64,000 nucleotides of DNA from Faecousia sp. (lineage in GTDB: Bacteria; Bacillota; Clostridia; Oscillospirales; Oscillospiraceae): positions 4,084 through 68,083 of the forward strand of contig JAZMZW010000149.1 in assembly GCA_045586205.1 (NCBI GenBank), written 5' to 3'. The first letter of the stretch is position 1; every line of letters begins with the position of its first letter. A program made the position numbers and the translations under genes. This document shows positions 10,928-41,125 of this stretch, in pieces. The notes under the pieces were generated by a model, which saw nothing but the letters and a program-made list of their open reading frames with translations, did not search any database and was not told where the DNA came from.

Positions 10928-13567
<2,640 letters not shown>

Positions 13568-13627
13568 GGTAAAACCTCCAATTTATTATCAAAAAATTAT
13601 AAACACATTCACAGGGGCTACCTCAAA

Positions 13628-13858
13628 TAAAAAACTCACCCCTACGCTACGCATAGGGGCGAGATCAACTCGCGGTACCACCCTATTTCGTCCCCGACAA
13701 ATCGGGAACCTCATTGAGATCCTGTTACGTGGATCGGCCGTCCTGCTCCTCACAGGCCGCTCGGAAGTGGCACACTGTCCCCCAGTCGCAGGGCTTCCAC
13801 CCTCCCCTGCTCTCTATAGACGGAAAAACAGCTTGGCTTCGTCATTGCATTTTCTTTG
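13628..13858 (-). promoter_or_regulatory. T-box riboswitch (Ala) with terminator
   Basis: AGGGTGGTACCGCG T-box at 13671-13684; candidate GCC specifier at 13769-13771; terminator CTCGCCCCTA...TAGGGGTGAG-TTTTT. Confidence 0.9.
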
Positions 13859-13868
13859 ATTCGTCACC

Positions 13869-13897
13869 ATTTTATCAGGGTTTTCTCCCTTTGTCAA
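13869..13897 (-). promoter_or_regulatory. Sigma-A promoter of the alaS leader
   Basis: TTGACA-17 bp-TAAAAT. Confidence 0.75.
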
Positions 13898-14019
13898 TCC
13901 CCATTTTTGCAGTTTTTTAGAAATGTCCCTTCCCAAGAAGACTTCTGCCCTCCACCCATAGAAAAAGCACCCGAAGCGTAGTGCCTCGGGTGCTTTGGAA
14001 ATACATAGGGGGAAAGGAA

Positions 14020-16068
14020 TTATTCTTCCTCTGCCTTCTTTGCGTCTTCGATGATCTTTGCCTGGTTCATCTGAGGAACTTCCTCGTAACGGACAAAGTT
14101 CAGAGCGTAGCGACCACGACCCTGAGTCATGGAACGCAGGTCGATAGCGTAGGAGACCATTTCGCCGATGGGAACTTCGGCTTCAACGATCTGCCAGCCA
14201 CGGTTGTCGCTGTCGGGGTTCATGCCCATAACACGGCCACGGCGCTTGTTCAGGTCGCCAATGATGTCGCCCATGTTTGCATCGGGGATGTAAACCTTCA
14301 GCTCGCCGATGGGCTCCAGCAGGGTGGGAGCTGCCTGGGGCAGGCCTTCCTTGTAGGCGATGCCGGCTGCGGTCTGGAATGCCATATCGGAGGAGTCAAC
14401 AGCGTGGTAAGAACCGAAGAACAGGGTAGCCTTCAGGAAAACTACGGGGTAGCCTGCCAGAACGCCCTTGCCGACGCAGTTACGCAGACCCTTTTCAACG
14501 GAGGGGATGAAGTTCTTGGGAACGCAGCCACCGACGGTCTCGTCAGCGAAGATCATGTCTTCGGACTCGGTCTGGGGCTCGAAACGGATATGAACGTCAC
14601 CGAACTGACCATGGCCACCGGACTGCTTCTTGTGACGGCCGTGCTGTTCGTGCTTCTTCTTGATGGTCTCGCGGTAAGCGATCTTTGCGGGACGGAGCTC
14701 AGCTTCTACCTTGTACTTGGACAGGAGCTTTGCAATGATAACGCTCAGGTGAATGTCGCAAACACCGGCGATGATCATTTCCTTGGTCTCGGGGTCGTTG
14801 CCGTAGGTGAAGGAAGCGTCTTCCTCGCTCAGCTTGACCAGGCCTGCAGCGACCTTGTCTTCCTGACCCTTGTTCTTTGCATAGATAGCCATGCGGTAGC
14901 AGGGAGTATCATAGGTCATGGGCTTAACGGTAGCAACCTTGCCTGCCAGACCCAGAGTATCACCGGTACGGACGGAAGCCAGCTTGGTGAATACGCCGAT
15001 GTCGCCACAGCAAACCTTGGAGGTCTTGTTGTTTTCCTTGCCCTTGGGGAAGAAGGTGTTACCCAGCTTCTCGTTGTCGCCGGTACGGGCATTGATGACA
15101 GTCATGGTGTCCTCGATGTCGCCGGAGATAACCTTGAAGTAGGAGTTCTTGCCATACTGGTCAGCCATGGTATTGAAAATGAATGCCATGGGGCTACCCT
15201 TGGGATCCAGAGCCAGCTCGGATTCCTTGCCGTCTTCGTCAACGACGATAGCGGGCTTGCCTTCCAGAGGAGAGGGAGCGTACTTGATCAGATTCTTCAT
15301 GAGCTGGATGGTACCCAGACCGGTCATAGCACAGCCGCAGAATACGGGAGTAATAGCACGCTGCTTGATGCCGTCCTTAACGCCCTTGAGGAGCTCTTCA
15401 GCGGTGAAGGGCTCTTCCATGAAGAACTTCTCCATGAGCTCTTCGTCGGTCTCAGCGACCTGCTCGTTCAGAGCCATCATGTATTCTTCGATCTTTTCCT
15501 CAGCTTCGCCGGGGAGAGCAACTTCCTTACCGGAAGCGTCGTATGCCTTCTTTTCCAGCAGGTCAACAACAACATTGCCTACGGGGAAGGTGAAGGGGAT
15601 AGCAGATGCACCGAAGGTGCTGTGGATTGCATCATAGGTGTTGAAGAAGTTGGCGTTCTCTTCGTCCAGCTTGGAGACGTAGAACATGGTGGGCAGCTCA
15701 GCATCGGACAGAGCCTTCCAGCCCTTTTCGGTACCGACGGCGATGCCGGACTTTGCAGTCAGGCAGATGATGCCGGTATCAGCAACACGGAGGGACTGTG
15801 CAACCTCAGCAGCGAAGTCAAAGTAACCGGGGTTATCCAGAACATTGAGCTTGCAACGGTCGTATTCTACGGGGATCAGAGAGGTCTTAATGGAATACTG
15901 TCTCTTCTTTTCTTCTTCGTCAAAGTCGGAAACAGTGGTGCCGTCGGCGCGCTTGCCGAGACGGGTGATTGCCTTGGTGAGGTAGAGCATGCTCTCGCAC
16001 AGGGCGGACTTACCGTCGCCGCCATGGCCAAGCAGGGCGATGTTGCGGATATCATTCGCAGTGTACAT
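14020..16068 (-). CDS. fusA2: Elongation factor G-like protein (EF-G2 paralogue)
   Basis: Full EF-G architecture (KKQSGGHGQFGDV, VDSSDMAF, LRSMTQGRG) with divergent G motifs GHGGDGKS, DNPGY and SKLD; not in the str operon. Confidence 0.9.
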   Translation of the reverse strand: MYTANDIRNIALLGHGGDGKSALCESMLYLTKAITRLGKRADGTTVSDFDEEEKKRQYSIKTSLIPVEYDRCKLNVLDNPGYFDFAAEVAQSLRVADTGIICLTAKSGIAVGTEKGWKALSDAELPTMFYVSKLDEENANFFNTYDAIHSTFGASAIPFTFPVGNVVVDLLEKKAYDASGKEVALPGEAEEKIEEYMMALNEQVAETDEELMEKFFMEEPFTAEELLKGVKDGIKQRAITPVFCGCAMTGLGTIQLMKNLIKYAPSPLEGKPAIVVDEDGKESELALDPKGSPMAFIFNTMADQYGKNSYFKVISGDIEDTMTVINARTGDNEKLGNTFFPKGKENNKTSKVCCGDIGVFTKLASVRTGDTLGLAGKVATVKPMTYDTPCYRMAIYAKNKGQEDKVAAGLVKLSEEDASFTYGNDPETKEMIIAGVCDIHLSVIIAKLLSKYKVEAELRPAKIAYRETIKKKHEQHGRHKKQSGGHGQFGDVHIRFEPQTESEDMIFADETVGGCVPKNFIPSVEKGLRNCVGKGVLAGYPVVFLKATLFFGSYHAVDSSDMAFQTAAGIAYKEGLPQAAPTLLEPIGELKVYIPDANMGDIIGDLNKRRGRVMGMNPDSDNRGWQIVEAEVPIGEMVSYAIDLRSMTQGRGRYALNFVRYEEVPQMNQAKIIEDAKKAEEE

Positions 16069-16275
16069 TATTGAAATCTCCTTTCTATGCAGTCAGGCTT
16101 TGACTGCGCGGCATACCATATTGCCACAATTGATACCATTATACACGATAAAACGGAATAATGCAATTCCCAAATCGTGATTTTCTATAAGATTTTCTAA
16201 AATTTTTTCGCAGTTTTTGAAAAAAGGGCTTCCGCTGTAGGTCTTCCATAGTCGAAAGCCCAAAAATTTTCCAAT

Positions 16276-18366
16276 TTAGAACCGTAAAAACACGAAGCCC
16301 ACAAAGCCGGTAACCAAACCCCATAGGATCTGAAAGGCCACGATATGCATGGGGGATGACACGGCTACAGAGTGCCATGCGATCAGAACGATGCACAGGA
16401 GCAGCCCCAAGATCCCCGCAAAGATGGACAGTGCGACTGCAACCAAAGAGGCATTGCGCAGAGTTCGTCCGGCAGCTACGGTAACTGCAAGAGCGCCGAA
16501 GGTATCCTCCGCAATAAGAGCCCCCTGCTCCATAGCCTGCTCCGCATTGGTAGCAGACAGGCGCAGACGCTCGCTGTATTCCGGGAACACCATAGTGTCC
16601 GTGGGCAAAGTATATTTCGCCGCGATCAGCTCCGGGGTAATAAGGAAGTCACGGGTTGCCAGCACAATGGAGAAATTCCTGTTGGCCAGCACATCGTGCA
16701 GACCTGTACGGGTGGAGGCATTGGCCTTATACCGAATGGCAAAGATCCCTGCCAGCACACCGTTGACGGAAACATATACCGCCTGCCGTACCCGTGTTCC
16801 CACAGGCACGGAAATTCCCATAGAACGGATGAAGCCTAAATTGCCCACAAGGACAATGTCATTTCCCACTTCCACACCTACACCGCCCTGTTCATAGAAG
16901 CGGTACTCTCCTACCCGGCTATGCTTGCCGTAATGCTCCTGCAGGAGGGCTTCAAAAAGTCCCACAAGGGGACTGTCCGCCTTCTCCAGAGCCGCCAGCG
17001 CATAGGAGATCACCTTGGCGGCATCAAAGGAGTGGTAGATCTTCATGCCGTTGGAGGCAATGCCCTTCTTGGGGAAGAGATCTCCGTCACGGAGGATGAT
17101 GGTGTGCTTACCGCCGAAGATCCTAGCCCCGTGCCAACCGCACAAGGCTCCGCCGTAGCGGTTCAAGCGTCTGGCAAGAATGCGGAAGGGCTTGGAAAAG
17201 GACTGCATCCCTCCATAGGGCAACGTTCCAAGAAGGAGCAGCAGCCATGTTTGGATAAAGGGCATTTCCCCGTCCCGGGACAGGAAATAAGACAGGATAG
17301 GCAGGAGGAACAGAAGGATGCTGGCATAGACACACAGCAGATCCTGAGGGAAACTGCTACGGGACAGCCGTTCCATAAAATCCTCCACATCTCCGGGATT
17401 GCGACGGAGGGAGTCGGTGTTCTCCAGAAGCTGGGGCGCATTGCACACACCCATGGGAGAACGGAACTCCGAAAGAGTTTTGGCAGTGTAAAAATCTGCG
17501 GCATTTTCGCTGACCAGCGCTTGCATCAGAAAAAACAACTGCAAGGTCACCAAGGGAGCATAGACTGCATCCATACAGGTAACACTGTATATGAGACAGA
17601 CTATGGAAGCTGTCAATGCCTGGGTATACAGGCTGATCCGGAAACGGAACAAGTCCCGTATTCCTCGCCATACCACCGGCAGTGCCAGAAACAGTCCCAG
17701 AAGCAACAAGCCCAAGGTGACCACCTGTCCGTGTTCATTGATCCAAGGGAAATACGCCCACTGCTTGGTGTCATAGAGCAGGACGAACATCCCCAGAAGG
17801 GCATCCAAGCCCAAAAACACACGGCGAAGGAGTAGATTCCCCAATTGCTTGCGCGCCTTTTGCAGAAGCTCCGCAGGCTTCTCTCCCCGTGGTGTTTCCT
17901 CTTCGGGGATGGTTTCCACAATGATGCGGATGGGTGGCTCTTTAGGCTTCCGTGAGGGCTTGACCTTCACATCCTTCAGGGAATGAACGACCTTTACACC
18001 TTCCTCGTCCTCCCCTTCTGCGGAGGGCGAAGGCTGTGGAAGCTCCACCGGAGTAAAGGGACGGGTCTGTTCCAGTTCTTCCCTGACAGACTTAGCCTTC
18101 TTCCGTGGGGTAAAGGTACGCAGAACCTCTTCTTCCTCCTCGGGAGGGGCAGGGCTTACTGTCCCTTCGGAAATCTGTCTGCCTTCTATTTTCAGAGGTG
18201 CAAAGACCGTGGGCTTTTTTTCTCCCTCTTCCTCCACAGGCAAGGCGGAAAAGAGAGGGCTTTCCTTTGGTGTTGCTTTTACGGGAGCAAATTCCTTGAT
18301 GATCTCTTCCAGTTGAAATTTCGAAGAAGCCGATGTCTGCTTGTCTTGTATCGGCTTATGCTCCAT
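16276..18366 (-). CDS. Membrane protein related to P1B-type ATPases, catalytically degenerate
   Basis: N/P-domain-like segment (DSPLV, GGVGVEV, VLVGN, VYVSVNGVLAGIFA, LATRD) but no DKTGT or TGES. Confidence 0.7.
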   Translation of the reverse strand: MEHKPIQDKQTSASSKFQLEEIIKEFAPVKATPKESPLFSALPVEEEGEKKPTVFAPLKIEGRQISEGTVSPAPPEEEEEVLRTFTPRKKAKSVREELEQTRPFTPVELPQPSPSAEGEDEEGVKVVHSLKDVKVKPSRKPKEPPIRIIVETIPEEETPRGEKPAELLQKARKQLGNLLLRRVFLGLDALLGMFVLLYDTKQWAYFPWINEHGQVVTLGLLLLGLFLALPVVWRGIRDLFRFRISLYTQALTASIVCLIYSVTCMDAVYAPLVTLQLFFLMQALVSENAADFYTAKTLSEFRSPMGVCNAPQLLENTDSLRRNPGDVEDFMERLSRSSFPQDLLCVYASILLFLLPILSYFLSRDGEMPFIQTWLLLLLGTLPYGGMQSFSKPFRILARRLNRYGGALCGWHGARIFGGKHTIILRDGDLFPKKGIASNGMKIYHSFDAAKVISYALAALEKADSPLVGLFEALLQEHYGKHSRVGEYRFYEQGGVGVEVGNDIVLVGNLGFIRSMGISVPVGTRVRQAVYVSVNGVLAGIFAIRYKANASTRTGLHDVLANRNFSIVLATRDFLITPELIAAKYTLPTDTMVFPEYSERLRLSATNAEQAMEQGALIAEDTFGALAVTVAAGRTLRNASLVAVALSIFAGILGLLLCIVLIAWHSVAVSSPMHIVAFQILWGLVTGFVGFVFLRF

Positions 18367-23747: not shown

Positions 23748-23790
23748 ACGACATCCGAAAGGGAAAGCCCCCCTTCGGATGTCGTTTTTT
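23748..23790. terminator. Bidirectional terminator between convergent genes
   Basis: ACGACATCCGAA...TTCGGATGTCGT flanked by A and T runs. Confidence 0.75.
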
Positions 23791-26434
23791 ACGCTTCCGT
23801 TAAGCCGTATTTTTCTTTGATGCGGTCTAATTTTTCCAACATAGGCTCTGCGGCTATGAGGAGGAAGATCACTGTTGCACTGCCGTGGATCAGATCCATA
23901 GGGAAGCCGGAAACATAATAAGAAAGGAGCAGCTTCCGGCTGAGGCTTTCGGGATGGTACAGGATAGCCGAAGCAGGATTCATGATCCCACCGTAGATCA
24001 CCAGGGCAGAAAACGCCCCAAAGGCCGCCAAGCTCCCCCGACTGCGACGGAGCAAGCCCTTGCGGAACAGCACCCCCGCAAGGAAGCCGATGATCCCCAT
24101 GCTGAACATCTGCCAGGGTGTCCAAGAACCTTGGGTAAACAGCACATTGGATGCCAGCATGGTTACCGCACCTACCAGAAATCCCGTTTCCCCTCCGAAG
24201 GCCACACCGGAAATGATCACCATTGCCATAACGGGCTTGAACTGGGGAAGCATGAAGAACACCGCCCGACCCGCTACACCAATGGCACACAAAACCGCAA
24301 TGGTCACAAGCTCCCTTGCCTTGGGCTTTCTGCCTTCAAAAATCAGGAAGAAGGGTAGCATGCATTCCATCAGCACCAACAGGGCAACAATATTATACTG
24401 TTGATTTCCCAAATAGACCACTCCTGCAAAAACAGTCAGAGGAATGATGAGCAAAATCAGCACACTTGCCACTACTGTACGACGGCTGAGTTTGCGTTTT
24501 TGCACCGGTGTTTGCAAGACCACAGGCGGGGCGCTTCTCCGTCCCACAGACAGGACAAAGCACCCTAAGCTGAGGATCAGTACCAAATAGAGCCAAAGCT
24601 GTTTCATCCCCTGTTCGCTGAGTCCGCCCGCTTGGATCAGCTTGGATAAATCGGAGATCCCCGTTGCATAGAAGAAGATCCCCAGTGCAACTGTCAGAGA
24701 AAAGCCTGCAAGAAGCTTCCGCCACAGGGGCAGGGGCTTGGGCTTGAAGCCGACTGCCGTCTCCCTAACCTTAGGCAAGGGGCGAATCTCCGACACAGTC
24801 TCCTCTTGAGTAAGCTCCCCTCCACAGCAGACGATCAGATCCTCCACTGTCACCGCCTGCGGTAGCCAAGGCCGTCCCATGCGATTTGCAGAGGTGGTAT
24901 AGAAGCTGTTGCCGGAGAAAAACTCCCTCGGTGTCCCCTCTGCCACAATGTTGCCGTCAAAAAACAGTCCGCATCTGTGGGCATATTCCGCACAGAAGGA
25001 CACATCGTGACTGACCATAAGAATAGTAACCCTCTCTGCGGACAAGCGTCTGAGGATCTTGCCAAAGCTCGCCTTAAACTCTGCATCAAATCCCTTTGTC
25101 GGCTCATCCAGAAGGAGGATCTCCGGCTCTGTCAGTAGGATCTTGGCAAGGGCTGTCCTTTGCTGTTCTCCCCCGGATAAATCGTAGGGATGCCGATCCA
25201 AAAACTCCCGCAATCCGCAAAGCTCTGTGATCCGTGCAAGCTTTTCCTCCTGTATCTCCTTAGACAGCTTTTTCCCACGGAAAACCTCGTAGAGATCCTC
25301 CCGTACCGTCCGCTTCACAAACAAGGTCTGGGGATTCTGGGGCAGGTGTGCCAAAACTCCCTCAACCGCTACAGTCCCCCGATAGGCTGTCCGCAAGCCG
25401 GAGATCAGCTTCAGAGTGGTGGACTTCCCTGCTCCGTTCCCTCCCAGGAGGGCGTAAAACTCTCCCCGTTTCAAGCACAGAGAAAGACCCTTGACCACAT
25501 CGGCACTGTCCTTTTCGTAACGAAACCACAACTCCTCACAGGTCAAAGCCCGCTCCTCGGAACAGATGGGGATTTCCTGTTCCTTTAAGGGGCGCAGGGG
25601 CTGTTCCCCCATACGTTCACGGAGAAAGCCACTGCCGTCCCGTACAGACACAGGACAGGGTAGCGCCGTTTTCACCCCTGCCCAAACACGCATGGCAGTG
25701 GGCATGGCGAGGAACATTCCGTTTCCCTTATCCCGTAGCTGTAAGCCTACCTCTTGGGGACTGCCGTCACAAATCACAGAGCCCTTGTCCATCACCATAA
25801 CTCGGGAAGCAAAGGGAAAGGCCTCCTCCAGTCGATGCTCTGTCAGGATCACGGTGATCCCCAATTCCCGATTGATCTTCCCCAACAGTGCCAAAAACTC
25901 CGAGGCGGCAATGGGATCGAGCTGTGCCGTCGGCTCATCCAGCACCAGCACACTTGGTTGCATTGCCATGACGGAAGCCAGATTCAACAGTTGTTTCTGT
26001 CCCCCGGAAAGCTCAGACACTTCTTTATAAAACCAATTTTCAATGCCGAAAAAGGCGGCGATCTCTGCCACCCTCCGTCGAATGGTAGGGGTATCATAGC
26101 CCAGACTTTCCAAGCCGAAGGCCAGTTCGTGCCAGACCTTGTCCGTAACCACCTGATTATCGGGGGATTGTAGCACATAGCCGATCTGCTGTGCCTGTTC
26201 CCGTTGGCTCAATTCTTCCAGTTTCGTCCCTTGGTATCGGATCTCACCGAAAAACTGTCCGTGGGGAGTCATGATGCTTTTCAAATGTCGCAGGAGTGTA
26301 GTCTTGCCACAGCCGGAAGGTCCGCAGAGGATCACAAACTGTCCCTGTGCTACAGTAAAGGACAGGTCCTTCAGAGCAAGCCTGTCCTCTCCGGGGTAGG
26401 CAAAATTCACATGTCGGAATGAATAGCTTTCCAT
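23789..26434 (-). CDS. ECF transporter double ATPase (A-A') fused to a C-terminal S component (CbrT-like, cobalamin)
   Basis: Two ABC domains (GPSGCGKT/LSGGQ and GGNGAGKS/LSGGE) followed by S-component motifs (LPQFKPV, GFLVGA, WTPWQM). Start at MESYSF after GGAGG. Confidence 0.88.
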   Translation of the reverse strand: MESYSFRHVNFAYPGEDRLALKDLSFTVAQGQFVILCGPSGCGKTTLLRHLKSIMTPHGQFFGEIRYQGTKLEELSQREQAQQIGYVLQSPDNQVVTDKVWHELAFGLESLGYDTPTIRRRVAEIAAFFGIENWFYKEVSELSGGQKQLLNLASVMAMQPSVLVLDEPTAQLDPIAASEFLALLGKINRELGITVILTEHRLEEAFPFASRVMVMDKGSVICDGSPQEVGLQLRDKGNGMFLAMPTAMRVWAGVKTALPCPVSVRDGSGFLRERMGEQPLRPLKEQEIPICSEERALTCEELWFRYEKDSADVVKGLSLCLKRGEFYALLGGNGAGKSTTLKLISGLRTAYRGTVAVEGVLAHLPQNPQTLFVKRTVREDLYEVFRGKKLSKEIQEEKLARITELCGLREFLDRHPYDLSGGEQQRTALAKILLTEPEILLLDEPTKGFDAEFKASFGKILRRLSAERVTILMVSHDVSFCAEYAHRCGLFFDGNIVAEGTPREFFSGNSFYTTSANRMGRPWLPQAVTVEDLIVCCGGELTQEETVSEIRPLPKVRETAVGFKPKPLPLWRKLLAGFSLTVALGIFFYATGISDLSKLIQAGGLSEQGMKQLWLYLVLILSLGCFVLSVGRRSAPPVVLQTPVQKRKLSRRTVVASVLILLIIPLTVFAGVVYLGNQQYNIVALLVLMECMLPFFLIFEGRKPKARELVTIAVLCAIGVAGRAVFFMLPQFKPVMAMVIISGVAFGGETGFLVGAVTMLASNVLFTQGSWTPWQMFSMGIIGFLAGVLFRKGLLRRSRGSLAAFGAFSALVIYGGIMNPASAILYHPESLSRKLLLSYYVSGFPMDLIHGSATVIFLLIAAEPMLEKLDRIKEKYGLTEA

Positions 26435-27297
26435 TGTCTTTCCTCCGCAAGATTGATGACCACGGGCATGGCGCACAGCATTAAGAAAACCATCTGAAAA
26501 CTCAGGGTCATGGGATTCAGGGAAACATAGCGTATTGAGGGATAGTAGCGGAAGCCAAAGCCATTGGCCATAACTCCCGTCAGAAGATACACTCCGCAAA
26601 AGCCCAGAAAGATCATTGCCGAACGGTCTCTCCGGTCAAAGCGGTAGATGGAAAAGGCAGTTCTGCCCTGTAAGCCATAGCCCCGACTTCTCATACTGTC
26701 CCCTGTTTCTATGGCGTTTTCCAGGACCCATGTGATCAGTATGGACAGTACGGTAACAGCGCTTTTTGTCCGTTGGAGCAAGGAGCCTTGGCTCGGATCT
26801 CTGCCCATGCCCCGTTGTGCATCCTTCACCTGCTCCAGCTGTGCCTTGAATCTCGGAATAAACCGCAGGGTCATGCTCAGCACCAGAGACAGTGCCGGGA
26901 TCACCCTGCCGAAAAGATAAATAAACTTATCCGAAGTGATTACCCGATTGAATTGAGAAAACCACAGGATCAGCGTCCCCAAACTCAGCCCCGCAGACAG
27001 GCCGTAGAGAATACTCTCCATGGTCAGGGGATTCCCTGTAGGCAAATACAGAAGAACCGTCACCCCCTCATGGCTGAAGGCAGGATTCATAAATCCTGTC
27101 AGGAGCATCAGAGGAAGACAGTACTTCAAGCAGAACAGAAGTCCCTGCCTCCCCTGAGTCTGCGCAGCGTAGCAGCAGGCACAGAGGAAGGACAGTCCCC
27201 GGGTCAGGGGATGAGCGATGGTCATGGAAAAGCCCATGACCAAGGCGAAATACAGAAAATTTACCAAAGGGTGGTAGCTTGCAAAACGATCCTTCAT
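26407..27297 (-). CDS. ecfT: ECF transporter transmembrane T component
   Basis: HPLVNFLYF, LRFIP, SMRSRGYG (CbiQ/EcfT family). Confidence 0.9.
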   Translation of the reverse strand: MKDRFASYHPLVNFLYFALVMGFSMTIAHPLTRGLSFLCACCYAAQTQGRQGLLFCLKYCLPLMLLTGFMNPAFSHEGVTVLLYLPTGNPLTMESILYGLSAGLSLGTLILWFSQFNRVITSDKFIYLFGRVIPALSLVLSMTLRFIPRFKAQLEQVKDAQRGMGRDPSQGSLLQRTKSAVTVLSILITWVLENAIETGDSMRSRGYGLQGRTAFSIYRFDRRDRSAMIFLGFCGVYLLTGVMANGFGFRYYPSIRYVSLNPMTLSFQMVFLMLCAMPVVINLAEERQWKAIHSDM

Positions 27298-27307
27298 AGC
27301 TTCTTCC

Positions 27308-28429
27308 TCAACCACCTACGGCGTAACTGCCCCCTACATCTACGCCCAGATCGCAGGTGTAGCGCCACTGCACCACATCTCCGTCCTTCAGTTCGTAACG
27401 GGAAGAGCCGTAATTGGGATACCAGCCGTTGACACTGTACATCCAGCCGGACAGACTGCCACAGTCAAATTCATAGAGATTACAGATCCCCTCCACATAG
27501 GCACTGTTATAAATAGGTGTCCAAGAGGCCTCCATATGGATGCCCCTATCCTTGCACAGCCTTTGCAGAACATCGAAGACCGATTCCCCTTCATAGAAGG
27601 TCACGGTGGTTTTTGCAAGAATAGTACCGTTAGAGGGTAGCATTTCCAGCTTATCGGGATCTAACAGCTCCAGATTGTTGACAATGGTGGAGCAATCAAT
27701 GGTAAAGGTGCAGGTCAGAGACTTGGTGGAATCTACAGTCTGATCCTCCGGCTCTACGGGCTTGGGCTTCCCCTCCGGAGTGGGAGAAGTGTAGTACTTA
27801 TCCCTTCCGTTGGTGTAGACCGTTCCGTCAATTTCTACAGTGCCGGATAAATAGCTATCGGTAGCTACCGTGGCCTCTGTAGAATCTGTCTCGGAAGGCT
27901 CGGTGACTTCATCCAACACAGCATCTTCCGTCAGGGCATCGGGGCGAATCACAAATTCTCTCACTGTGCCGTCCAGGGACAGATTCAAAATAGTGTGCTT
28001 TCCCCCTGTGAGGGACACGGATGCCACAGGCTCTGTACCTACATAGGCAGTGGCACTCTGAGCAGCCCAGCTTTCCTGCAAGGTAATGGACAGAAGAAGG
28101 GAATAACCAAAGTCTTCCTCCTGATGCAGGCAGACAGCCACCTCTTCTCCGGAAGACTGCAAGTCTACCATGAGATTCAGCTCCCGAGCTTGTGGAATGT
28201 CGCTACCGAAGACCGTCCACTCGTAGGAGATCCCCTTACTTTCCCCCGCAAAAGTACCGATGGCATTTTCGCTTTGTATCTGTGCCACGATCCCCTGCGA
28301 GATGATCCCGTCTTCCGGAACGGTAAGGGTATCATGTAGATTCACTTGTCCGAAATTTCCCCCACAGCCACAAAGGCTCAACAGGACAGACAGGATCAAA
28401 AGAACTGCGATCTGCTTTTTCATAGTCAT
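27308..28429 (-). CDS. Lipoprotein with C-terminal DUF4430 (transcobalamin beta-like, B12-binding) domain
   Basis: Lipobox-like LSLCGC; GESVFDVL...YVEGICNLYEFDCGSLSGWMYSVNGWYPNYG...LKDGDVVQWRYTCDLG. Confidence 0.88.
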   Translation of the reverse strand: MTMKKQIAVLLILSVLLSLCGCGGNFGQVNLHDTLTVPEDGIISQGIVAQIQSENAIGTFAGESKGISYEWTVFGSDIPQARELNLMVDLQSSGEEVAVCLHQEEDFGYSLLLSITLQESWAAQSATAYVGTEPVASVSLTGGKHTILNLSLDGTVREFVIRPDALTEDAVLDEVTEPSETDSTEATVATDSYLSGTVEIDGTVYTNGRDKYYTSPTPEGKPKPVEPEDQTVDSTKSLTCTFTIDCSTIVNNLELLDPDKLEMLPSNGTILAKTTVTFYEGESVFDVLQRLCKDRGIHMEASWTPIYNSAYVEGICNLYEFDCGSLSGWMYSVNGWYPNYGSSRYELKDGDVVQWRYTCDLGVDVGGSYAVGG

Positions 28430-29052
28430 TCTCCAATTACGATTTTTCCGTGCTTCACTTGCAGGGTATCTGTGGTCATTGCCAGACTTTTCTCCTCCTG
28501 CGTAGCGGCAAAAACAGCATCCTCCAACACCAGATCCAACACATCCCCCTGTCGTACACTGCCACGGAGTCGGAAGGACAGGCGGAGGAGCACATTGTCT
28601 TCCCCTTCCAGAAGCTCCTGCCCGAAGGCATATTTGCCCCCGGTCATATCCAGATACATGAGGTTGACAAGTCCCGATTCATTGGCGGTTTCCACATTGT
28701 AACTCCACTCCGGCAAGCTTTGCCCCGTGGAGCTGTTATTGTCATAAATAAACACATTGCCTTCCTCTACCCCAAGGAACTCCAAACGACCGGGGTCAAA
28801 GCGGAGGCTCATGCTCATAGCCGGATACAGAGCCTCACCCAGATTAGAGATCTCCACATCCAAGGTGAATTCTTCCGTGGAGGAAAGGCTCAGTCTCCCG
28901 GGAGATCCCACGGTCAAAGTTGACTGTCCCAATTCTGTTTCTTGCAGGAACAGCCATACTCCAAGGAGGAGTCCCGCTGCAAGGAACAGTACCAAGATCC
29001 ACGGCCACAAGGGACGCTTTTTCTTTTTTGTATTTTCAATTTCTTCTGCCAC
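28426..29052 (-). CDS. Membrane-anchored cohesin-domain protein
   Basis: KKKKR plus one TM, then FTLDVEI...LRFDPGRLEFLGVEEG...LLRLSFRL...GKIVIG cohesin pattern; GTG start. Confidence 0.75.
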   Translation of the reverse strand: MAEEIENTKKKKRPLWPWILVLFLAAGLLLGVWLFLQETELGQSTLTVGSPGRLSLSSTEEFTLDVEISNLGEALYPAMSMSLRFDPGRLEFLGVEEGNVFIYDNNSSTGQSLPEWSYNVETANESGLVNLMYLDMTGGKYAFGQELLEGEDNVLLRLSFRLRGSVRQGDVLDLVLEDAVFAATQEEKSLAMTTDTLQVKHGKIVIGE

Positions 29053-29074
29053 AAGTCCCCCTCCTTTCTATGTC

Positions 29075-31903
29075 TCAGGGATTGGTGGTAAGGGTGGCGG
29101 CCTTGATGACTACGGCGAAGTCCGTACCCTTGACAAAGTGCTCCACAATGGCAAGGGCATCATAGGTGTTGATACGGCTGTCGCCGTTAACATTAACGGT
29201 AAGGATCTGCCGATCCTCGGTTAATTCTCCCTTGCGCACCCATGCATCTACCGCATTGAGGGCATCCTGTGCATTGATCACTCCATCCCCGTTGGTATCA
29301 CCGAAGGTCAGAGGCTGTGTATCCCCGGAGAATTTATAATGCTTCTCATTGACCAGCTTCTCCATATCCATAGCGCTGTCTACCAGTGCCACGAAGGTTG
29401 CCACACCACTCTTGGTGCTAATCTCAGCACTGTAGGAGAAGTCAAGCTTTGTGTTGCCGTCATCATAGCTCAGCTTGGTATCCTTCTTGATGCCGGTTAC
29501 CGCCACAGCCACAGCCTTCTTATCCGTAGGAATCAGGTCCACACCGTCACCCTGATACAGGCACACGGCACTGAAGGAGATCCCCTCCACGACTTGTACT
29601 GTTCCTGTGGCATTTTGGGTATTTACCACGATCATGGAATTTTCATCCCGAGAGTCGGAATTCAGCTTCACGGACATGCCGGAAAGGGCAAAATTCAGCT
29701 TGCTCCCCTCTGACACAGTCTGTGCTGTAAAAGATAGACTGAACAGTTCTGCCGGATAGTCCTCTCCGCTGACAGTAAGGCTTTGGTTTTGATTGGCATC
29801 AAAGTAGACCACACGGAGTTTTCCGCTGTCGGCTTCTACATTCCAGACCACTTCTCCACCATTGAGGCGGTCGGAAGCTGTGACATCCGTCACCGTGACC
29901 CCTTGGGGGACGGTCATAAGGAAGTCAATCAGTTTGTAGCCTCCCTCGTTATCCCACTTATTGATACCAATGATTCCATGGAAGTCTTCCCCACCATTGA
30001 TCTGCGCAGGAAGCCCCAGAGTGGCGGTCATTTCTTCCTTGGACAGGGAATCCTCTCCGAAGGACACATCACTGTAGTCAAACAGCGCCTTCTCACCCTT
30101 GAGAAAACGGTCATATGCCACCAGTGCGTAACAGGCCTGATCCGTTGCCATAGCGTTGGAGGTTTTTCCCTGATGGGCGAACATGGCCTCCTCTTCCAGA
30201 TAATAGCTCAGAAGATTATCCACTGCGGAAATACCATTCTTGATAAAGCGAGGATCTGTATCGGGGTTAATGCCCCATGCAGTACAGGCAACAATGGCCC
30301 ATACACAGCTTTCGGAAGTCTCCCCCTTGCCGTAGGGGAAGCCGCCGGTCTCTAACTGAGATTCGGATAACCATGTCAGGGCTTCCTCACAAGCCTGTGC
30401 AACCTCCGGCTGATTCCGATAGGGATATAGAGCAACCAAGGTCATACCCGTAATATCCACATTGGAGGGCTGTGCCTTGGCAGTAACCAGAGACCAACCG
30501 CCGTCATTGTGTTGGAAGGACAGAATAGAGTCCACACATTGCTGACGGATGGTGGGATCTGAAGTAGCATAGTTCCCGGAATCCAGTGCAATGAGCGTCC
30601 AAATCGTACCGTTCATTCCCTGCTTGCGGATCCAGTTCATGCCGTTGGCACTGTAGGCCTCTACAAGATCCCAGTCTCCTACAGAGGTAGCATTCCTGCC
30701 GATGGCAGAAAGTGCCACGATCAGACGGGAGTTATCTGTAGATTTGTTCTTGTCCAAAGCGCCGTTCATATTCAAAGAAGGCGCAGTGGTATTCACGTAT
30801 TCCACGATCCGATCATAGTAAGCGGTAAAGTAAGGATCGTTCTTGCCAAAGTAGTTCCCTCTTGCAAGGCCGAACACTGTCCATTCCCCTGCATTTGTGC
30901 CGAAATTCGGCTCAGTGACTGTGGTGGCAAGCTGTGCCATAGTGGCCTGTAGCACCTCGGTAACATCTTGGGACTCAGGGGAAGCACCTGCCGTAACCGT
31001 GACCTTTGCATAGGCGGGAGAGGACACGATGCAGGGCTCTCCGCTTTGGTCGTAGCCATCGCAAGAGTCGTGTGTACCGTCATCCGTGCCCCGGGCACCG
31101 TCACACCACAGATAATAGTCCCCTGCTTCTGCAAAGCTAATCTTTGCAATCCCCTGTTCGTCCGTTACAACAGAGCCTTCTGCCTTGCCGAAGGACTTGC
31201 CGTAATAGATCGTATACTCCGTAGCCTCCTTGACCCAAGACTGACCGAACATCAGGTCACAGAAGGAGTGCTTCAGCTTCACAGACAGGCTCTCTCCCTG
31301 TACTGCGGTATAGTCATGGACATAGTTCCCCTGCAGATCCGCAAAGAGGTGGAAGCCACCCAGCTGATCCCACAGGAAGCTGTAGCAGGAAAAGCTGGCA
31401 ACATCCAGAAAATCTCCTGCCTTCAATACGATGCGGTCGGAGGTTGCACCGATGGTCATACCTTCGGCACTTTGGCTCTCGTCCACAGGGAAATCTCCGT
31501 TGAGGAAGTACACCAGATTCTCCGTAAAGCCGAAGATCCCGTCTTTAAAGTAAGAGCTACCGGGCAGAGGGTCAAAGTCCACATCCGACCAGCTTCCCCC
31601 GTACAGTTCCTCATGGGCATAGATCAGCAGCTGCAAAGCGGTGGTGTCGTACTTCCCGTCCCCATCGGCATCATAAAGAAGCTCCTCCAGACCATAGGCT
31701 TCCAAATCCACGGTGGCTACGGCATCCAGAGGGACAGGATAGTACACAAAGGGATTGCCGTTTTTGTCCTTAATGTATTTCCCGTCATAGCTGACGGAAA
31801 GATACACATATTCCCCCGTTTTTGCCATACCTGCGGAGGGAAGCATCGTCAGTAAGATCCCAAGGATCAGGATCATGCTCCATATCTTTTTGGTAGTTCT
31901 CAT
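29075..31903 (-). CDS. Secreted modular protein: DUF4430-like and Ig-like domains, prenyltransferase-type alpha/alpha barrel, cohesin-like domain, X module and dockerin
   Basis: Signal peptide; EW..GLAR, QHNDGGWS, DITGM.L.AL and NAMATDQA barrel repeats; C-terminal GDTNGDGVINAQD...NVNGDSRINTYD dockerin duplicate. Confidence 0.82.
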   Translation of the reverse strand: MRTTKKIWSMILILGILLTMLPSAGMAKTGEYVYLSVSYDGKYIKDKNGNPFVYYPVPLDAVATVDLEAYGLEELLYDADGDGKYDTTALQLLIYAHEELYGGSWSDVDFDPLPGSSYFKDGIFGFTENLVYFLNGDFPVDESQSAEGMTIGATSDRIVLKAGDFLDVASFSCYSFLWDQLGGFHLFADLQGNYVHDYTAVQGESLSVKLKHSFCDLMFGQSWVKEATEYTIYYGKSFGKAEGSVVTDEQGIAKISFAEAGDYYLWCDGARGTDDGTHDSCDGYDQSGEPCIVSSPAYAKVTVTAGASPESQDVTEVLQATMAQLATTVTEPNFGTNAGEWTVFGLARGNYFGKNDPYFTAYYDRIVEYVNTTAPSLNMNGALDKNKSTDNSRLIVALSAIGRNATSVGDWDLVEAYSANGMNWIRKQGMNGTIWTLIALDSGNYATSDPTIRQQCVDSILSFQHNDGGWSLVTAKAQPSNVDITGMTLVALYPYRNQPEVAQACEEALTWLSESQLETGGFPYGKGETSESCVWAIVACTAWGINPDTDPRFIKNGISAVDNLLSYYLEEEAMFAHQGKTSNAMATDQACYALVAYDRFLKGEKALFDYSDVSFGEDSLSKEEMTATLGLPAQINGGEDFHGIIGINKWDNEGGYKLIDFLMTVPQGVTVTDVTASDRLNGGEVVWNVEADSGKLRVVYFDANQNQSLTVSGEDYPAELFSLSFTAQTVSEGSKLNFALSGMSVKLNSDSRDENSMIVVNTQNATGTVQVVEGISFSAVCLYQGDGVDLIPTDKKAVAVAVTGIKKDTKLSYDDGNTKLDFSYSAEISTKSGVATFVALVDSAMDMEKLVNEKHYKFSGDTQPLTFGDTNGDGVINAQDALNAVDAWVRKGELTEDRQILTVNVNGDSRINTYDALAIVEHFVKGTDFAVVIKAATLTTNP

Positions 31904-33755
31904 TTCGGTTCATCCTTTCCAAGCTCCGAGAATTTCCCTGCCACCCTCCGATTTGCGGAAGCAGGTGGGAAGGGTTTATGCTACATTGAAATACGCAAGG
32001 GCACTGTCGGAGTAGGCAAACAGTGCCTTGCACAGGTCGCCCAAGGCGCCTGTCTTGTTGTTGCCGTAAGTATCTGCGCTGTACTGCAGGGTGCAGGACA
32101 CAGGCGTCTCTCCTGCGTAAACTTGGACAGAAACCACATTCCGCAGTTCTGCCGCCAGAAGTCCGTCAAAGGTAAAGGCGTAGAGACCGAGGGACTCACT
32201 GTATACCGTAGACTCTGTGAGGACTGTATCCATGGATTCCCCGTCCACATCCATATAGTTGATATGCAAGCTCAGAGCTTCGGGTTCTCCCTTGTAAGCA
32301 GAGCAATTTGCAATAAACTTGATCATGACCTTAGAGCCAAGATCCAGAGACTTCCCTGCCCATGTAACGGATGGATTTTCCAAATCCTCCAAAACTCGAT
32401 TGTTATTCCCGAAAGAAAGCCCATCCACATTGCTGAGGTAGCGTTTGTGTTCCTCTGTCATTGCTCCGTCCACAAGACTGTCGGCGCGGTAGTCCTTGTA
32501 GATCTGTGCCGCTGTGCCGTAGCGAAGAAGATCGGCACAAAGGGCCTTCAGTTCCTTGGATGCGGCAGGCTTGTTCAGTTGGGAATATGCATAAGTCCCC
32601 ACGCTGTATTCATCCACAGGGGAGCAATAGAGTTTCCCATCCTTCCTTCCGTAAAGAACAGAAGTCACGCAGTCATTCATCTGCACCGCAGTCAAGCCGG
32701 ACAGGGTAAAGTAATAGAAATTCCCCTTCAGCACAGGCTCCGTGCGGATGATCTTGGTCGCGGTCTTATCATGATTCTCGTATAGCTCCAATGCCGTTTC
32801 CACATAGACCGTATCCATATCGAAGCCCTCCAGATAGGGCTTGTAGAGCATAAGATTTACAGAAATATCACTTGCCAGATTCAGACTGTGGCTCAGCTTC
32901 AGGCTCTGCAATTCTTCAGGCTTTTCCTCGCCCTTGACCGTTACCTTTGCATAGGCCGGGGAGGAAACCACACAGGGCTCCAGATACTCGCCGTAGTGGT
33001 CGCAGGCTCCGTGAGTGCCGTCATCAGAGCCCAAGCCCCCGTCACACCAGAGGTAATAAGTCCCCCCGGTAGGGAAGGTAATTTCTGCATTCCCCTCTCC
33101 ATCCGTAAACGCAGAGCCTTCCGCTTCACCGAAGGTCCTGCCGTAAAAGATCTCGTAATCCGTGGCATCATAGACCCACGCCTCGCCGTACATCAAGTCA
33201 CAGAAGGAGTGCTTCAGCTTCACGGACAGAGCTTCTCCCTCCGGGACAGTATAATCATGGACATAGTTCCCCTCGGGGTCTGCAAAGAGGTGGAAGCCAC
33301 CTAACTGATCCCACAGGAAGCTGTAGCAATTAAAGCTTGCTACATCCAGGAAGTCTCCTGCCTCCAGCACGATGCGGTCGGAGGTTGCCCCTACGGTCAT
33401 AAAGTCGCTCTGTTGGCTCTCATCCACGGGGAAATCTCCGTTGAGGAAGTACACCAGATTCTCCGTAAAGCCGAAGATTCCGTCTTTAAAGTAAGAGCTA
33501 CCGGGCAGGGGGTCAAAGTCCACATCCGACCAGCTTCCCCCGTACAGTTCCTCATGGGCATAGATCAGTAGCTGCAAAGCGGTGGTGTCGTACTTCCCGT
33601 TCCCATCGGCATCATAAAGAAGCTCCTCCAGACCATAGGCTTCCAAATCCACGGCGGCTACGGCATCCAGAGGGACCGGATAGTACACAAAAGACTTTCC
33701 GTTTTTGTCCTTGATGTATTTCCCGTCAAAGCTGACGGAAAGATAAATGTATTCC
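31000..33755. repeat. Direct repeat of the N-terminal module coding region (about 31000-31815 and 32940-33755)
   Basis: For example 31501 TGAGGAAGTACACCAGATTCTCCGTAAAGCCGAAGAT recurs at 33442; near-identical over about 300 bp. Confidence 0.9.
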
Positions 33756-33844
33756 CCCTCTCCGGCAAAGCTTACAGCAGGGAGCAGAGCCCACACCATT
33801 GCAAATACCAAAAAGATCGCCAAGGTTTTTTTCATAAATTTCAT
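31976..33844 (-). CDS. Secreted protein: same N-terminal DUF4430-like/Ig module plus the conserved ~310-aa C-terminal domain
   Basis: Signal peptide; N-terminal ~280 aa highly similar to the downstream gene; C-terminus similar to genes at 47653, 50837 and 54834. Confidence 0.85.
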   Translation of the reverse strand: MKFMKKTLAIFLVFAMVWALLPAVSFAGEGEYIYLSVSFDGKYIKDKNGKSFVYYPVPLDAVAAVDLEAYGLEELLYDADGNGKYDTTALQLLIYAHEELYGGSWSDVDFDPLPGSSYFKDGIFGFTENLVYFLNGDFPVDESQQSDFMTVGATSDRIVLEAGDFLDVASFNCYSFLWDQLGGFHLFADPEGNYVHDYTVPEGEALSVKLKHSFCDLMYGEAWVYDATDYEIFYGRTFGEAEGSAFTDGEGNAEITFPTGGTYYLWCDGGLGSDDGTHGACDHYGEYLEPCVVSSPAYAKVTVKGEEKPEELQSLKLSHSLNLASDISVNLMLYKPYLEGFDMDTVYVETALELYENHDKTATKIIRTEPVLKGNFYYFTLSGLTAVQMNDCVTSVLYGRKDGKLYCSPVDEYSVGTYAYSQLNKPAASKELKALCADLLRYGTAAQIYKDYRADSLVDGAMTEEHKRYLSNVDGLSFGNNNRVLEDLENPSVTWAGKSLDLGSKVMIKFIANCSAYKGEPEALSLHINYMDVDGESMDTVLTESTVYSESLGLYAFTFDGLLAAELRNVVSVQVYAGETPVSCTLQYSADTYGNNKTGALGDLCKALFAYSDSALAYFNVA

Positions 33845-33885
33845 TGTAAATCGTCCTTTCTACATTGGGCAAGGGGTGATCCCCC

Positions 33886-34077
33886 TCAGTTTTTCTCCTT
33901 GGGCGGTTTCAGCCCTGCGGATTCCAAGGCACGGGGCCAAGGGCCGAGAAAAGCCTTAATACGGGCGCAAGTCCCACTGTCGAAATCCTTTTTTCCGGGC
34001 AACCGTCCCAATTCCTCATACTTGCGTCGCAGAAGCTCCTCCGCCCAGGCCTTCTTTTCTTCAGTTGTCACTTGCAT
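33886..34077 (-). CDS. Small 63-aa protein resembling the homing-endonuclease-associated repeat (HNH_repeat)
   Basis: EELGRLP...FLGPWPRALESAGL; AAAGGAGGG RBS; first gene after the riboswitches. Confidence 0.7.
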   Translation of the reverse strand: MQVTTEEKKAWAEELLRRKYEELGRLPGKKDFDSGTCARIKAFLGPWPRALESAGLKPPKEKN

Positions 34078-34109
34078 CCCTCCTTTGCATGAAATTCGCC
34101 TCCCACAAA

Positions 34110-34165
34110 CACAAAAGGGTGCAACCCATTTATCCCCAAGTACGGATAAATACGGTTGCACCCTC
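34110..34165 (-). terminator. Riboswitch-controlled terminator 2
   Basis: AGGGTGCAACC...GGTTGCACCCT-TTTGT on the minus strand. Confidence 0.8.
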
Positions 34166-34187
34166 CTGTCAAAGTGTGAAGACCCCA

Positions 34188-34282
34188 TCAATACAGCAGG
34201 CTCTCTGACTTATGGCATATGCCAAACACAGCAATGGACGGTTGTTTCGGCCTCTCACCGAATCACCTGACTGTACCGAATA
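34188..34282 (-). ncRNA. Short cobalamin riboswitch (class II-like)
   Basis: TACAG...CAGGTGATTCGGTGAGAGGCCGAA...ATTGCTGTG...AAGTCAGAGAGCCTGCTGTA: T-loop hairpin and B12-box-like 3' end, no large P6 extension. Confidence 0.7.
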
Positions 34283-34302
34283 TTCGATTTTTCTTTTTGA
34301 AG

Positions 34303-34346
34303 CAAAGAAAAAACTGCAACAACTCCACATAGAGTTGTCACAGCCG
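34303..34346 (-). terminator. Riboswitch-controlled terminator 1
   Basis: GCTGTGACAACTC...GAGTTGTTGCAGT-TTTTTCTTT on the minus strand. Confidence 0.75.
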
Positions 34347-34397
34347 TTTTTCCGCAACAAAAAACCACAGAATCTGTACTTGAAGAGGCGTGTCTGT

Positions 34398-34590
34398 CCC
34401 CCTTTAAGCAGTTCTCCTGACTTGCGGATCGACAGCACACATACAGCTTTCTCAGCTTACGCCAATGACCGACTTTCGTCTGATATGGGAGCCTCCACGC
34501 ATACAGTGGCGGTACCGTCCGAGATTCTCACTCGGTTTTCTATTCTCCTGTGAGGCTGTTACCGCGTTCACAGGCACTTACGGGGTGTAT
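34398..34590 (-). ncRNA. Cobalamin (AdoCbl, class I) riboswitch
   Basis: AAGTGCCTGTG..CACAGG, AATAGAAAACCGAGTGAGAATCTCGGACGGTACCGCCACTGTA, GTCATTGG..CTGAGAAAG, AAGTCAGGAGAACTGCT. Confidence 0.9.
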
Positions 34591-34606
34591 TCACTTACCG
34601 CAGATG

Positions 34607-34635
34607 ATGATAACACACTTCCCCCGGTTTGTCAA
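34607..34635 (-). promoter_or_regulatory. Sigma-A promoter of the B12 operon
   Basis: TTGACA-17 bp-TATCAT with extended TG. Confidence 0.75.
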
Positions 34636-41033: not shown

Positions 41034-41125
41034 TGGCGGAGAGGGCGGGATTCGAACCCGCGAGACGCTTTTAACGCCTACACGATTTCCAGTCGTGCGC
41101 CTTCGGCCAGCTCAGCCACCTCTCC
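41034..41125 (-). tRNA. tRNA-Ser(GGA)
   Basis: GGAGAGG acceptor stem, CT-GGA-AA anticodon loop, long variable arm, GGTTCGAATCC, encoded CCA. Confidence 0.97.

Follow-up and report, generated by a model that had tools for sequence, protein, structure and literature searches.

The window analyzed here is a stretch of 64,000 nucleotides from the genome of Faecousia sp. (assembly GCA_045586205.1, contig JAZMZW010000149.1, positions 4,084 to 68,083), an Oscillospiraceae-type bacterium. Within it, positions 34635 to 23748 hold a cassette that lies on the minus strand throughout and reads, in order, as a promoter, a cobalamin riboswitch, a candidate second aptamer, seven packed genes, and a terminator. 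The genes encode a miniprotein, two secreted paralogs of 622 and 942 amino acids (aa), the longer of which ends in a dockerin, a membrane protein with a single cohesin, a lipoprotein, and the parts of an energy-coupling factor (ECF) importer. We consider it probable that this is a B12-repressed operon for the capture and import of corrinoids, with a binder tethered by a cohesin-dockerin pair, in a gut bacterium that uses B12 and probably does not synthesize it. The original prediction for this DNA, made from the sequence, had described a tight, co-directional operon with these genes, and every element that it named was recovered in its place on the minus strand. The gaps between genes are at most 72 nucleotides (nt), and the other junctions in the seven-gene run overlap by 4 to 28 nt. 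The features, in order of transcription, are as follows.

34607-34635, minus strand: sigma-70-type promoter directly upstream of the riboswitch (TTGACA, 17 nt, TG-extended TATCAT; 11/12 matches)
34390-34596, minus strand: cobalamin riboswitch aptamer, RF00174 (74.2 bits against a gathering score of 31.5; model positions 1-189, full length)
34312-34345, minus strand: intrinsic terminator in the expression platform of the first riboswitch (15-pair stem, then a T run)
~34188-34290, minus strand: candidate second, short cobalamin aptamer with a B12-box-like motif (conserved in relatives; no Rfam match here)
34115-34165, minus strand: second terminator-like hairpin with a T-rich tail (read from the sequence; kept in relatives)
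33886-34077, minus strand: P0001, 63-aa HNH_repeat miniprotein, taken from an internal ATG at 34077 (PF18780, 37.4 bits)
31976-33844, minus strand: P0002, 622-aa secreted paralog (signal peptide, SLBB-like and immunoglobulin [Ig]-like head, two ~150-aa repeats)
29075-31903, minus strand: P0003, 942-aa secreted protein with a signal peptide
30980-31822, minus strand: P0003 residues 28-308, SLBB/DUF4430-like beta-grasp plus Ig-like head (structure comparison, hhalign)
30053-30973, minus strand: P0003 residues 311-617, alpha6/alpha6 toroid (Pfam Prenyltrans, TED; structure comparison)
29579-30031, minus strand: P0003 residues 625-775, internal cohesin-like beta-sandwich (Foldseek, hhalign, profile)
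29126-29308, minus strand: P0003 residues 866-926, dockerin with two Ca-loop/helix repeats (Pfam, PDB dockerins)
28426-29052, minus strand: P0004, 208-aa type II membrane protein with a single cohesin (PF00963, 27.3 bits against a cut-off of 24.1)
27308-28429, minus strand: P0005, 373-aa lipoprotein with a C-terminal DUF4430/SLBB domain (PF14478, 62.2 bits; lipobox-like LCGC at residues 19-22)
26407-27315, minus strand: P0006, probable EcfT, the CbiQ-family transmembrane component (PF02361, 22.7 bits, slightly below the cut-off of 25)
23789-26434, minus strand: P0007, EcfA-EcfA'-S fusion, 881 aa from Met56 (S part at ~23789-24532)
23748-23785, minus strand: strong operon terminator (17-pair stem and T run)

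An AlphaFold2 (AF2) model of P0003, built on 40 homologs, has a mean predicted local distance difference test score (pLDDT) of 88. After the signal peptide (residues 1-27), it shows a beta-grasp domain (residues 28-175) and an Ig-like sandwich (residues 177-308), which together form the head, followed by the toroid, the internal cohesin-like module, a second Ig/X-like sandwich (residues 776-860), and the dockerin. Pfam, the AF2 models, and structure comparison agree with the domains that had been predicted for the operon. The dockerin is recognized by Pfam (Dockerin_1, PF00404, residues 868-919, 26.2 bits against a cut-off of 22.9), it contains two D/N-rich 12-residue Ca loops (residues 869-880 and 904-915), and the P0003 family profile matches the dockerins in the PDB.

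The head was also folded alone (pLDDT of 91.5) and compared exhaustively against 48,161 PDB representatives. The best matches of its first domain were the beta domains of haptocorrin (Z 7.7), transcobalamin (Z 7.0 and 7.2), and intrinsic factor (Z 6.8), together with the DUF4430 structure 3U7Z (Z 7.5, 90/96 residues), all of which outrank generic beta-grasp proteins such as MoaD. The complete two-domain head superposes on DUF4430-annotated ESM-Atlas clusters with TM-scores of 0.68 to 0.69 and also matches an SLH-anchored Atlas cluster, 19% of whose members contain the eukaryotic Cobalamin_bind family. Foldseek hits of the head alone to "Zcp" metal-binding entries and to Ig-like proteins were set aside as uninformative (TM-scores of 0.24 to 0.29, root mean square deviation [rmsd] above 12).

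The toroid has twelve helices in the AF2 model (residues 315-601) and a Prenyltrans match at residues 428-586. The original prediction had regarded it as a transcobalamin-like capture barrel. It does align well with the whole alpha domains of transcobalamin (4ZRP_B, from the TC:CD320 complex; Z 18.7, 253 residues aligned, rmsd 3.3) and intrinsic factor (Z 18.2), but its best match is squalene-hopene cyclase (Z 23.5, 267 residues aligned, rmsd 2.9), followed by other class II terpene cyclases. As modeled, this is a generic alpha6/alpha6 toroid, which is compatible with the B12-binding one without being specifically closest to it. The Foldseek list for the full P0003 model was dominated by complement C3 and alpha2-macroglobulin chains; these share a TED toroid and beta-sandwiches with P0003, which looks like common parts and not kinship.

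Foldseek pairs the C-terminal third of P0003 with the end of the CipA scaffoldin where cohesin, X module, and dockerin follow one another (3KCP, 4FL4). The internal module itself (residues 625-775) resembles the cohesin structures 2XDH and 5NRM_A with TM-scores of 0.71 and 0.69, respectively; by profile, its match to 2XDH has an E value of 0.065, and hhalign relates it to the P0004 family with a probability of 72% over 127 columns.

P0004 consists of a basic, lysine-rich N terminus, one transmembrane (TM) helix, and the cohesin. A complex was modeled from P0004 residues 44-208 (32-row alignment), P0003 residues 850-942 (40-row alignment), and two Ca ions. The interface score (ipSAE) was 0.80 to 0.81 in three runs, against 0.04 for the best control, with a partner pLDDT of 72 or higher and no less than 97% of contacts shared; the cohesin chain had a pLDDT of 92. 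In calibration, 58 of 80 solved complexes and 2 of 110 mismatched pairs passed at this level, counts that apply only roughly here because own alignments and ligand Ca were used. On the dockerin side, the modeled contacts involve both helices (residues 871-890 and 913-926), and on the cohesin side, a single face (residues 77-82, 117-122, 130-138, and 178-194). Near-invariant columns make up 22 of the 29 positions in this cohesin interface and 66 of the 136 elsewhere, which is indicative only, as the sequences are related. The model thus supports binding of the P0003 dockerin to P0004, without showing binding or a preference over other cohesins. The adjacent cohesin had been proposed as the partner of the dockerin, and the modeled contact agrees with that proposal; however, because P0003 carries a cohesin-like module of its own, the partner is not settled by gene adjacency alone.

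The ATPase and S parts of the importer that had been predicted were also borne out. P0007 matches the ECF ATPase equivalog TIGR04520 (335.8 bits against a cut-off of 315) and contains two ABC_tran domains and an ECF S-component. The S part (residues 690-936) matches CbrT (6FNP_A) with an E value of 2.8e-8 over chain residues 10-178 of 182, and CbrT was its only significant match among PDB structures. No glycoside hydrolase, lyase, esterase, or carbohydrate-binding module family was found by Pfam or NCBIfam among the seven operon products, in keeping with the non-carbohydrate setting that had been proposed. A cellulosome reading was rejected, there being no domains of carbohydrate-active enzymes, a single cohesin in P0004, and no multicohesin scaffoldin.

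The leader had been described as containing riboswitches in the plural. One of these is the full-length RF00174 aptamer, whereas the second was not called: no match to the cobalamin clan was found in the 241-nt spacer with Rfam at an E value of up to 10, and a single aptamer is called in the window. The spacer of ~230 to 241 nt after the first terminator does contain the B12-box-like motif and the second hairpin with its T tail, and this element is conserved in the related loci L001, L003, and L004. The L004 copy gave a full-length but subthreshold match to the AdoCbl riboswitch RF01482 (20.8 bits, E value of 0.09, gathering score of 50), and the element aligns core for core with two short aptamers in the genome G297 that pass the Rfam threshold (33.3 and 41.4 bits). 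On account of this conservation, the L004 match, and the G297 alignment, a second, short cobalamin aptamer in the leader is probable but unproven. In G297 (L032, 13028-13738), the two above-threshold aptamers flank the HNH-repeat gene, so that there, unlike in the window, one switch serves the miniprotein and another the capture genes.

Relatives of the key proteins are numerous: in a collection clustered at 90% identity, P0003 has 1,275 and P0004 has 2,260, and at the 50% level P0003 has 5,204. Eight other loci were inspected (L001, L004, L026, L027, L028, L031 [G488], L032 [G297], and G138). A cobalamin riboswitch stands ahead of the cassette in seven of them (L001, L004, L026, L027, L028, L031, and L032), and the TM-cohesin gene immediately follows the dockerin gene in all nine loci, the window included; the synteny expected for the cassette and its riboswitch was thus found. 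The close relatives L001 to L003 and L004 keep the riboswitch, the HNH-repeat gene, the dockerin protein, and the cohesin. L026, L027, and L028, with ~31 to 42% identity to P0003, have the riboswitch, the dockerin protein, the cohesin, a DUF4430 protein, EcfT, A-A'(-S), and S, and G488 and G297, which belong to two other families of the order, have the entire cassette with its riboswitch. The cassette of G138 is minimal and consists of a 491-aa toroid-dockerin protein with neither an SLBB domain nor an internal cohesin, a TM-cohesin, a bare SLBB lipoprotein, and the ECF genes.

Among species genomes the cassette is rare, with 3 carriers in 201 genomes of the family (one protein query) and 3 in 401 genomes of the order, in three families (family profile). 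Cassette proteins from genomes of different families are nevertheless 55 to 69% identical, and this identity, together with carriage by 3 of 401, gives a patchy distribution that suggests horizontal spread. In L001, L002, and L003, the operon stops after the cohesin, and ParB_N, Tn916-type Xis, and integrase genes replace the DUF4430 and ECF genes (L001, ~13500-16700); upstream, a Fic protein and a second Xis/integrase pair accompany an OLD-TOPRIM ATPase and a UvrD helicase that together form a Gabija-like pair. From its gene content, this looks like the insertion of mobile elements into or beside the cassette.

Related proteins with a toroid and DUF4430 elsewhere end either in SLH domains or in dockerins. 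Since SLH domains replace the dockerin in homologous proteins, the dockerin appears to occupy the slot for cell surface anchoring, which suggests that it fills that role.

The heads of P0002 and P0003 are 75% identical over the first 310 residues, and the P0002-like architecture is also found in the relatives P0263 and P0275. Residues 305-622 of P0002 form two ~150-aa repeats that are 29.5% identical to each other (E value of 8e-5). This C-terminal half had no sequence match in Pfam, NCBIfam, or the PDB (best PDB E value of 0.26) and matched only unnamed clusters in the Atlas; the Shr heme-binding domain was considered for it and dismissed (E value of 0.94, not significant). No recognizable anchor was found in P0002. 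The 622-aa gene is missing from L001, L004, L026, L027, and L028, and G488 and G297 have a second head-like gene. The HNH_repeat miniprotein heads the cassette in L001 to L004, L026, L031 (G488), and L032 (G297), whereas L027, L028, and G138 have no copy of it.

The genes that flank the cassette are unrelated to it (a Na/H antiporter, a NUDIX protein, a member of the exo/endonuclease-phosphatase family [Exo_endo_phos], and an SLH-NlpC/P60 protein), as are a T-box leader at window positions 13652-13854 (minus strand), whose 93.5 bits barely reach the gathering score, and a tRNA gene at 41037-41125 (minus strand). The assembly, which is 86% complete, contains two genes with B12-binding domains, and CbiC and CobS were searched for in it and not found; this gene content is consistent with B12 auxotrophy without proving it. 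The sole other cobalamin riboswitch (42.8 bits; contig C4, 22925-23110) lies ahead of a solitary gene for a 148-aa DUF4430 protein that has no transporter as a neighbor. Two further cohesin-dockerin loci, on contigs C16 and C58, encode giant LRR/Flg_new surface proteins of 1,880 and 1,945 aa that carry a cohesin and a dockerin near the N terminus and are flanked by several small cohesin proteins. Each of these loci has its own cohesins and its own dockerin, and the C16 locus also has a heparinase II/III-like protein. Judged from the sequences, cohesin-dockerin pairs in this genome seem to be locus-private connectors, with no cellulosome present.

From the domain identities, the riboswitch, the gene order, and the modeled interface, all of which were computed, we infer a scheme in which repression by B12, Ca-dependent docking, corrinoid binding, and a relay to the importer would be combined. 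When B12 is scarce, the leader would let transcription proceed. P0004 would insert with its cohesin outside the cell, and P0005 would be anchored by its lipid. P0003, which would be secreted without a wall anchor of its own, would be held at the surface by its dockerin on the P0004 cohesin, and this tether would keep the toroid near the SLBB domain of the lipoprotein and near the importer. The toroid and an SLBB domain (that of P0003, that of P0005, or both) could then clamp a corrinoid in the manner of the alpha and beta domains of transcobalamin, after which the CbrT-like S-component would take it over and the ECF ATPases would drive import. Corrinoid binding and the order of transfer, first the capture protein, then the lipoprotein, then the ECF transporter, are purely conjectural. 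P0002 may be a freely released binder. In the G138 cassette, the toroid and the SLBB domain are on separate, separately tethered polypeptides, which suggests that the purpose of the tether is to bring the two together at the membrane.

Several points weigh against this interpretation. The DUF4430-like label of the P0003 and P0002 heads rests on structure because sequence methods are weak there: no Pfam match was found, an iterated DUF4430 hidden Markov model gave no match even with filters off, and hhalign of the P0003 head to DUF4430 reached a probability of only 58%. The toroid model is structurally nearer to terpene cyclases than to transcobalamin. The EcfT match falls just below the Pfam cut-off (22.7 against 25 bits); the gene at the orthologous position in L028 carries PF02361. 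As many cohesin-dockerin complexes have been solved, the passing complex model shows likeness to such complexes, not binding by this copy, and it may reflect those structures and not the specificity of this pair. The genome contains nine cohesin matches and three dockerins, in addition to the internal cohesin-like module of P0003, so that other pairings are possible. The G138 cassette was found without a riboswitch. Finally, a related operon of Lactobacillus sakei has been assigned to heme (bioRxiv 10.1101/864751), which by analogy would point to a different cargo.

The system may serve B12 uptake while the real partner of the dockerin is something other than P0004: either the internal module of another P0003 copy, which would give head-to-tail chains, or a cohesin from the C16 or C58 locus, with P0004 holding something else. 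The succession of cohesin fold, X-like module, and dockerin in P0003 does follow the layout of the CipA C terminus, the nine cohesins and three dockerins leave room for such a pairing, and the complex score cannot separate close cousins of the true partner. We nevertheless regard this as unlikely, as the TM-cohesin gene stands directly after the dockerin gene in every locus inspected, is kept in G138 where the dockerin protein has no internal cohesin, and encodes a protein whose most conserved face is the modeled interface, while the C16 and C58 loci have their own dockerins beside their own cohesins. At a similarly low level of confidence, P0003 could act as a mini-scaffoldin, its cohesin-like module accepting a dockerin from another P0003 molecule or from a different binder, so that B12-binding heads, in chains or small complexes, would extend from the membrane cohesin out through the wall and the tethered toroid and the lipoprotein SLBB domain would form a split transcobalamin that feeds the S-component. 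If so, this would be a cellulosome-like machine for a vitamin.

A tethered B12 binder with P0004 as its partner is the interpretation that we prefer, and two further alternatives concern what the proteins handle. The cargo might be an incomplete corrinoid such as cobinamide, which ECF-CbrT reportedly carries as well, or another tetrapyrrole such as heme, as reported for the homologous Lsa1836-1840 operon of L. sakei. The failure to find CobS does not favour salvage of incomplete corrinoids, nor does it exclude it. With a cobalamin riboswitch in eight of the nine loci, an S part whose only significant match among solved structures is a B12 carrier, and a second B12 riboswitch in the organism that also controls a DUF4430 protein, we think a different cargo improbable. 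Very improbable, in our estimation, is the idea that the toroid protein is a surface enzyme, similar to a terpenoid cyclase or a lyase, and that the operon links an enzymatic activity to transport. Squalene-hopene cyclase and other class II terpene cyclases are indeed the best structural matches of the toroid, and Pfam and NCBIfam return prenyltransferase and squalene cyclase families, but these family matches are far below their cut-offs (19 bits against 322.7 for TIGR01787) and P0003 is secreted. Class II terpene cyclases have a DxDD motif, and an alignment by eye places N-V-D-I at the expected position in P0003. A toroid combined with an SLBB domain is, moreover, the architecture of transcobalamin, and bacterial proteins of this kind have been assigned to B12 binding (PMC1796856).

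The competition of Gram-positive gut anaerobes for scarce corrinoids outside the cell is largely uncharacterized, the well-studied BtuG and BtuH proteins belonging to Bacteroides, and the cassette provides a concrete, testable parts list for Clostridia-type bacteria. P0003 relatives number in the thousands in gut and other metagenomes and yet are patchy among species genomes. If the proposed function is correct, the operon would be a clear case of a cohesin-dockerin pair used for nutrient capture and not for the breakdown of polysaccharides. The pair would be private, one to one, and encoded by adjacent genes, and the specificity of cohesins for dockerins could therefore be studied in a small, self-contained system; surface display is another possible application.

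The original prediction had known of no characterized example of such a system. In the literature collection searched, no paper was found that connects cohesin-dockerin modules to B12 uptake or to a cobalamin riboswitch, and papers that name dockerin, cohesin, and vitamin B12 together treat them separately. Individual parts do have known counterparts. Mammalian transcobalamin, intrinsic factor, and haptocorrin likewise combine an alpha6/alpha6 toroid with a beta-grasp (SLBB) domain, whereas here the order of the domains is reversed, an Ig spacer lies between them, and sequence identity is ~13%. BtuG and BtuH, the B12-capturing surface lipoproteins of Bacteroides (PMC8941943), likewise assist a transporter by capturing B12 at the exposed cell surface and are linked to riboswitches; they differ in having unrelated folds, in serving the TonB-dependent BtuB in a Gram-negative outer membrane, and in having no cohesin-dockerin pair. 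In cellulosomes, the complex of CipA CohI9-X-DocII with the type II cohesin of SdbA (3KCP, 4FL4) shares with P0003 the C-terminal layout of cohesin, X-like module, and dockerin, as well as the principle, predicted here, of holding a large secreted protein on a cohesin at the cell by means of a dockerin. The system in the window differs in that its cargo is no glycoside hydrolase and its anchor, in place of an SLH protein, is one cohesin carried on a TM helix that is not cleaved; there is also one pair per operon, with no multicohesin scaffoldin.

On the transport side, ECF-CbrT is a characterized vitamin B12 importer of Lactobacillus delbrueckii (PDB 6FNP; PMC5997447). Both systems have an ECF module (two ATPases and T, the latter probable in the window) with a CbrT-type S-component, but in the window A, A', and S are fused into one protein of 881 aa, and the system is dedicated, controlled by a riboswitch, and accompanied by four extracellular accessory genes that ECF-CbrT lacks. 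The five-gene homologous operon Lsa1836-1840 of L. sakei (bioRxiv 10.1101/864751) encodes S, A-A', T, and separate beta-like and alpha-like transcobalamin subunits, with the same split logic as the G138 cassette; in contrast to the system proposed here, it was linked to heme uptake, and its description includes no cohesin-dockerin pair. A precedent for the capture proteins dates from 2007, when Burroughs et al. (PMC1796856) described bacterial transcobalamin-like surface proteins with SLBB domains and alpha/alpha-toroids in CbiO/CbiQ operons and predicted that they scavenge B12. P0003 shares with them the domain vocabulary, the operon partners, the predicted role, and the occurrence of paralogous extracellular SLBB proteins within one operon. 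Those authors list Gram-positive anchor motifs and fusions to Ig, FIVAR, fasciclin, and propeller domains, and the terms cohesin and dockerin are absent from their text. The idea of B12 scavenging at the core of the operon has thus been available since 2007, and the part that appears to be undescribed, and by which the present system differs from those proteins, is the cohesin-dockerin tether.

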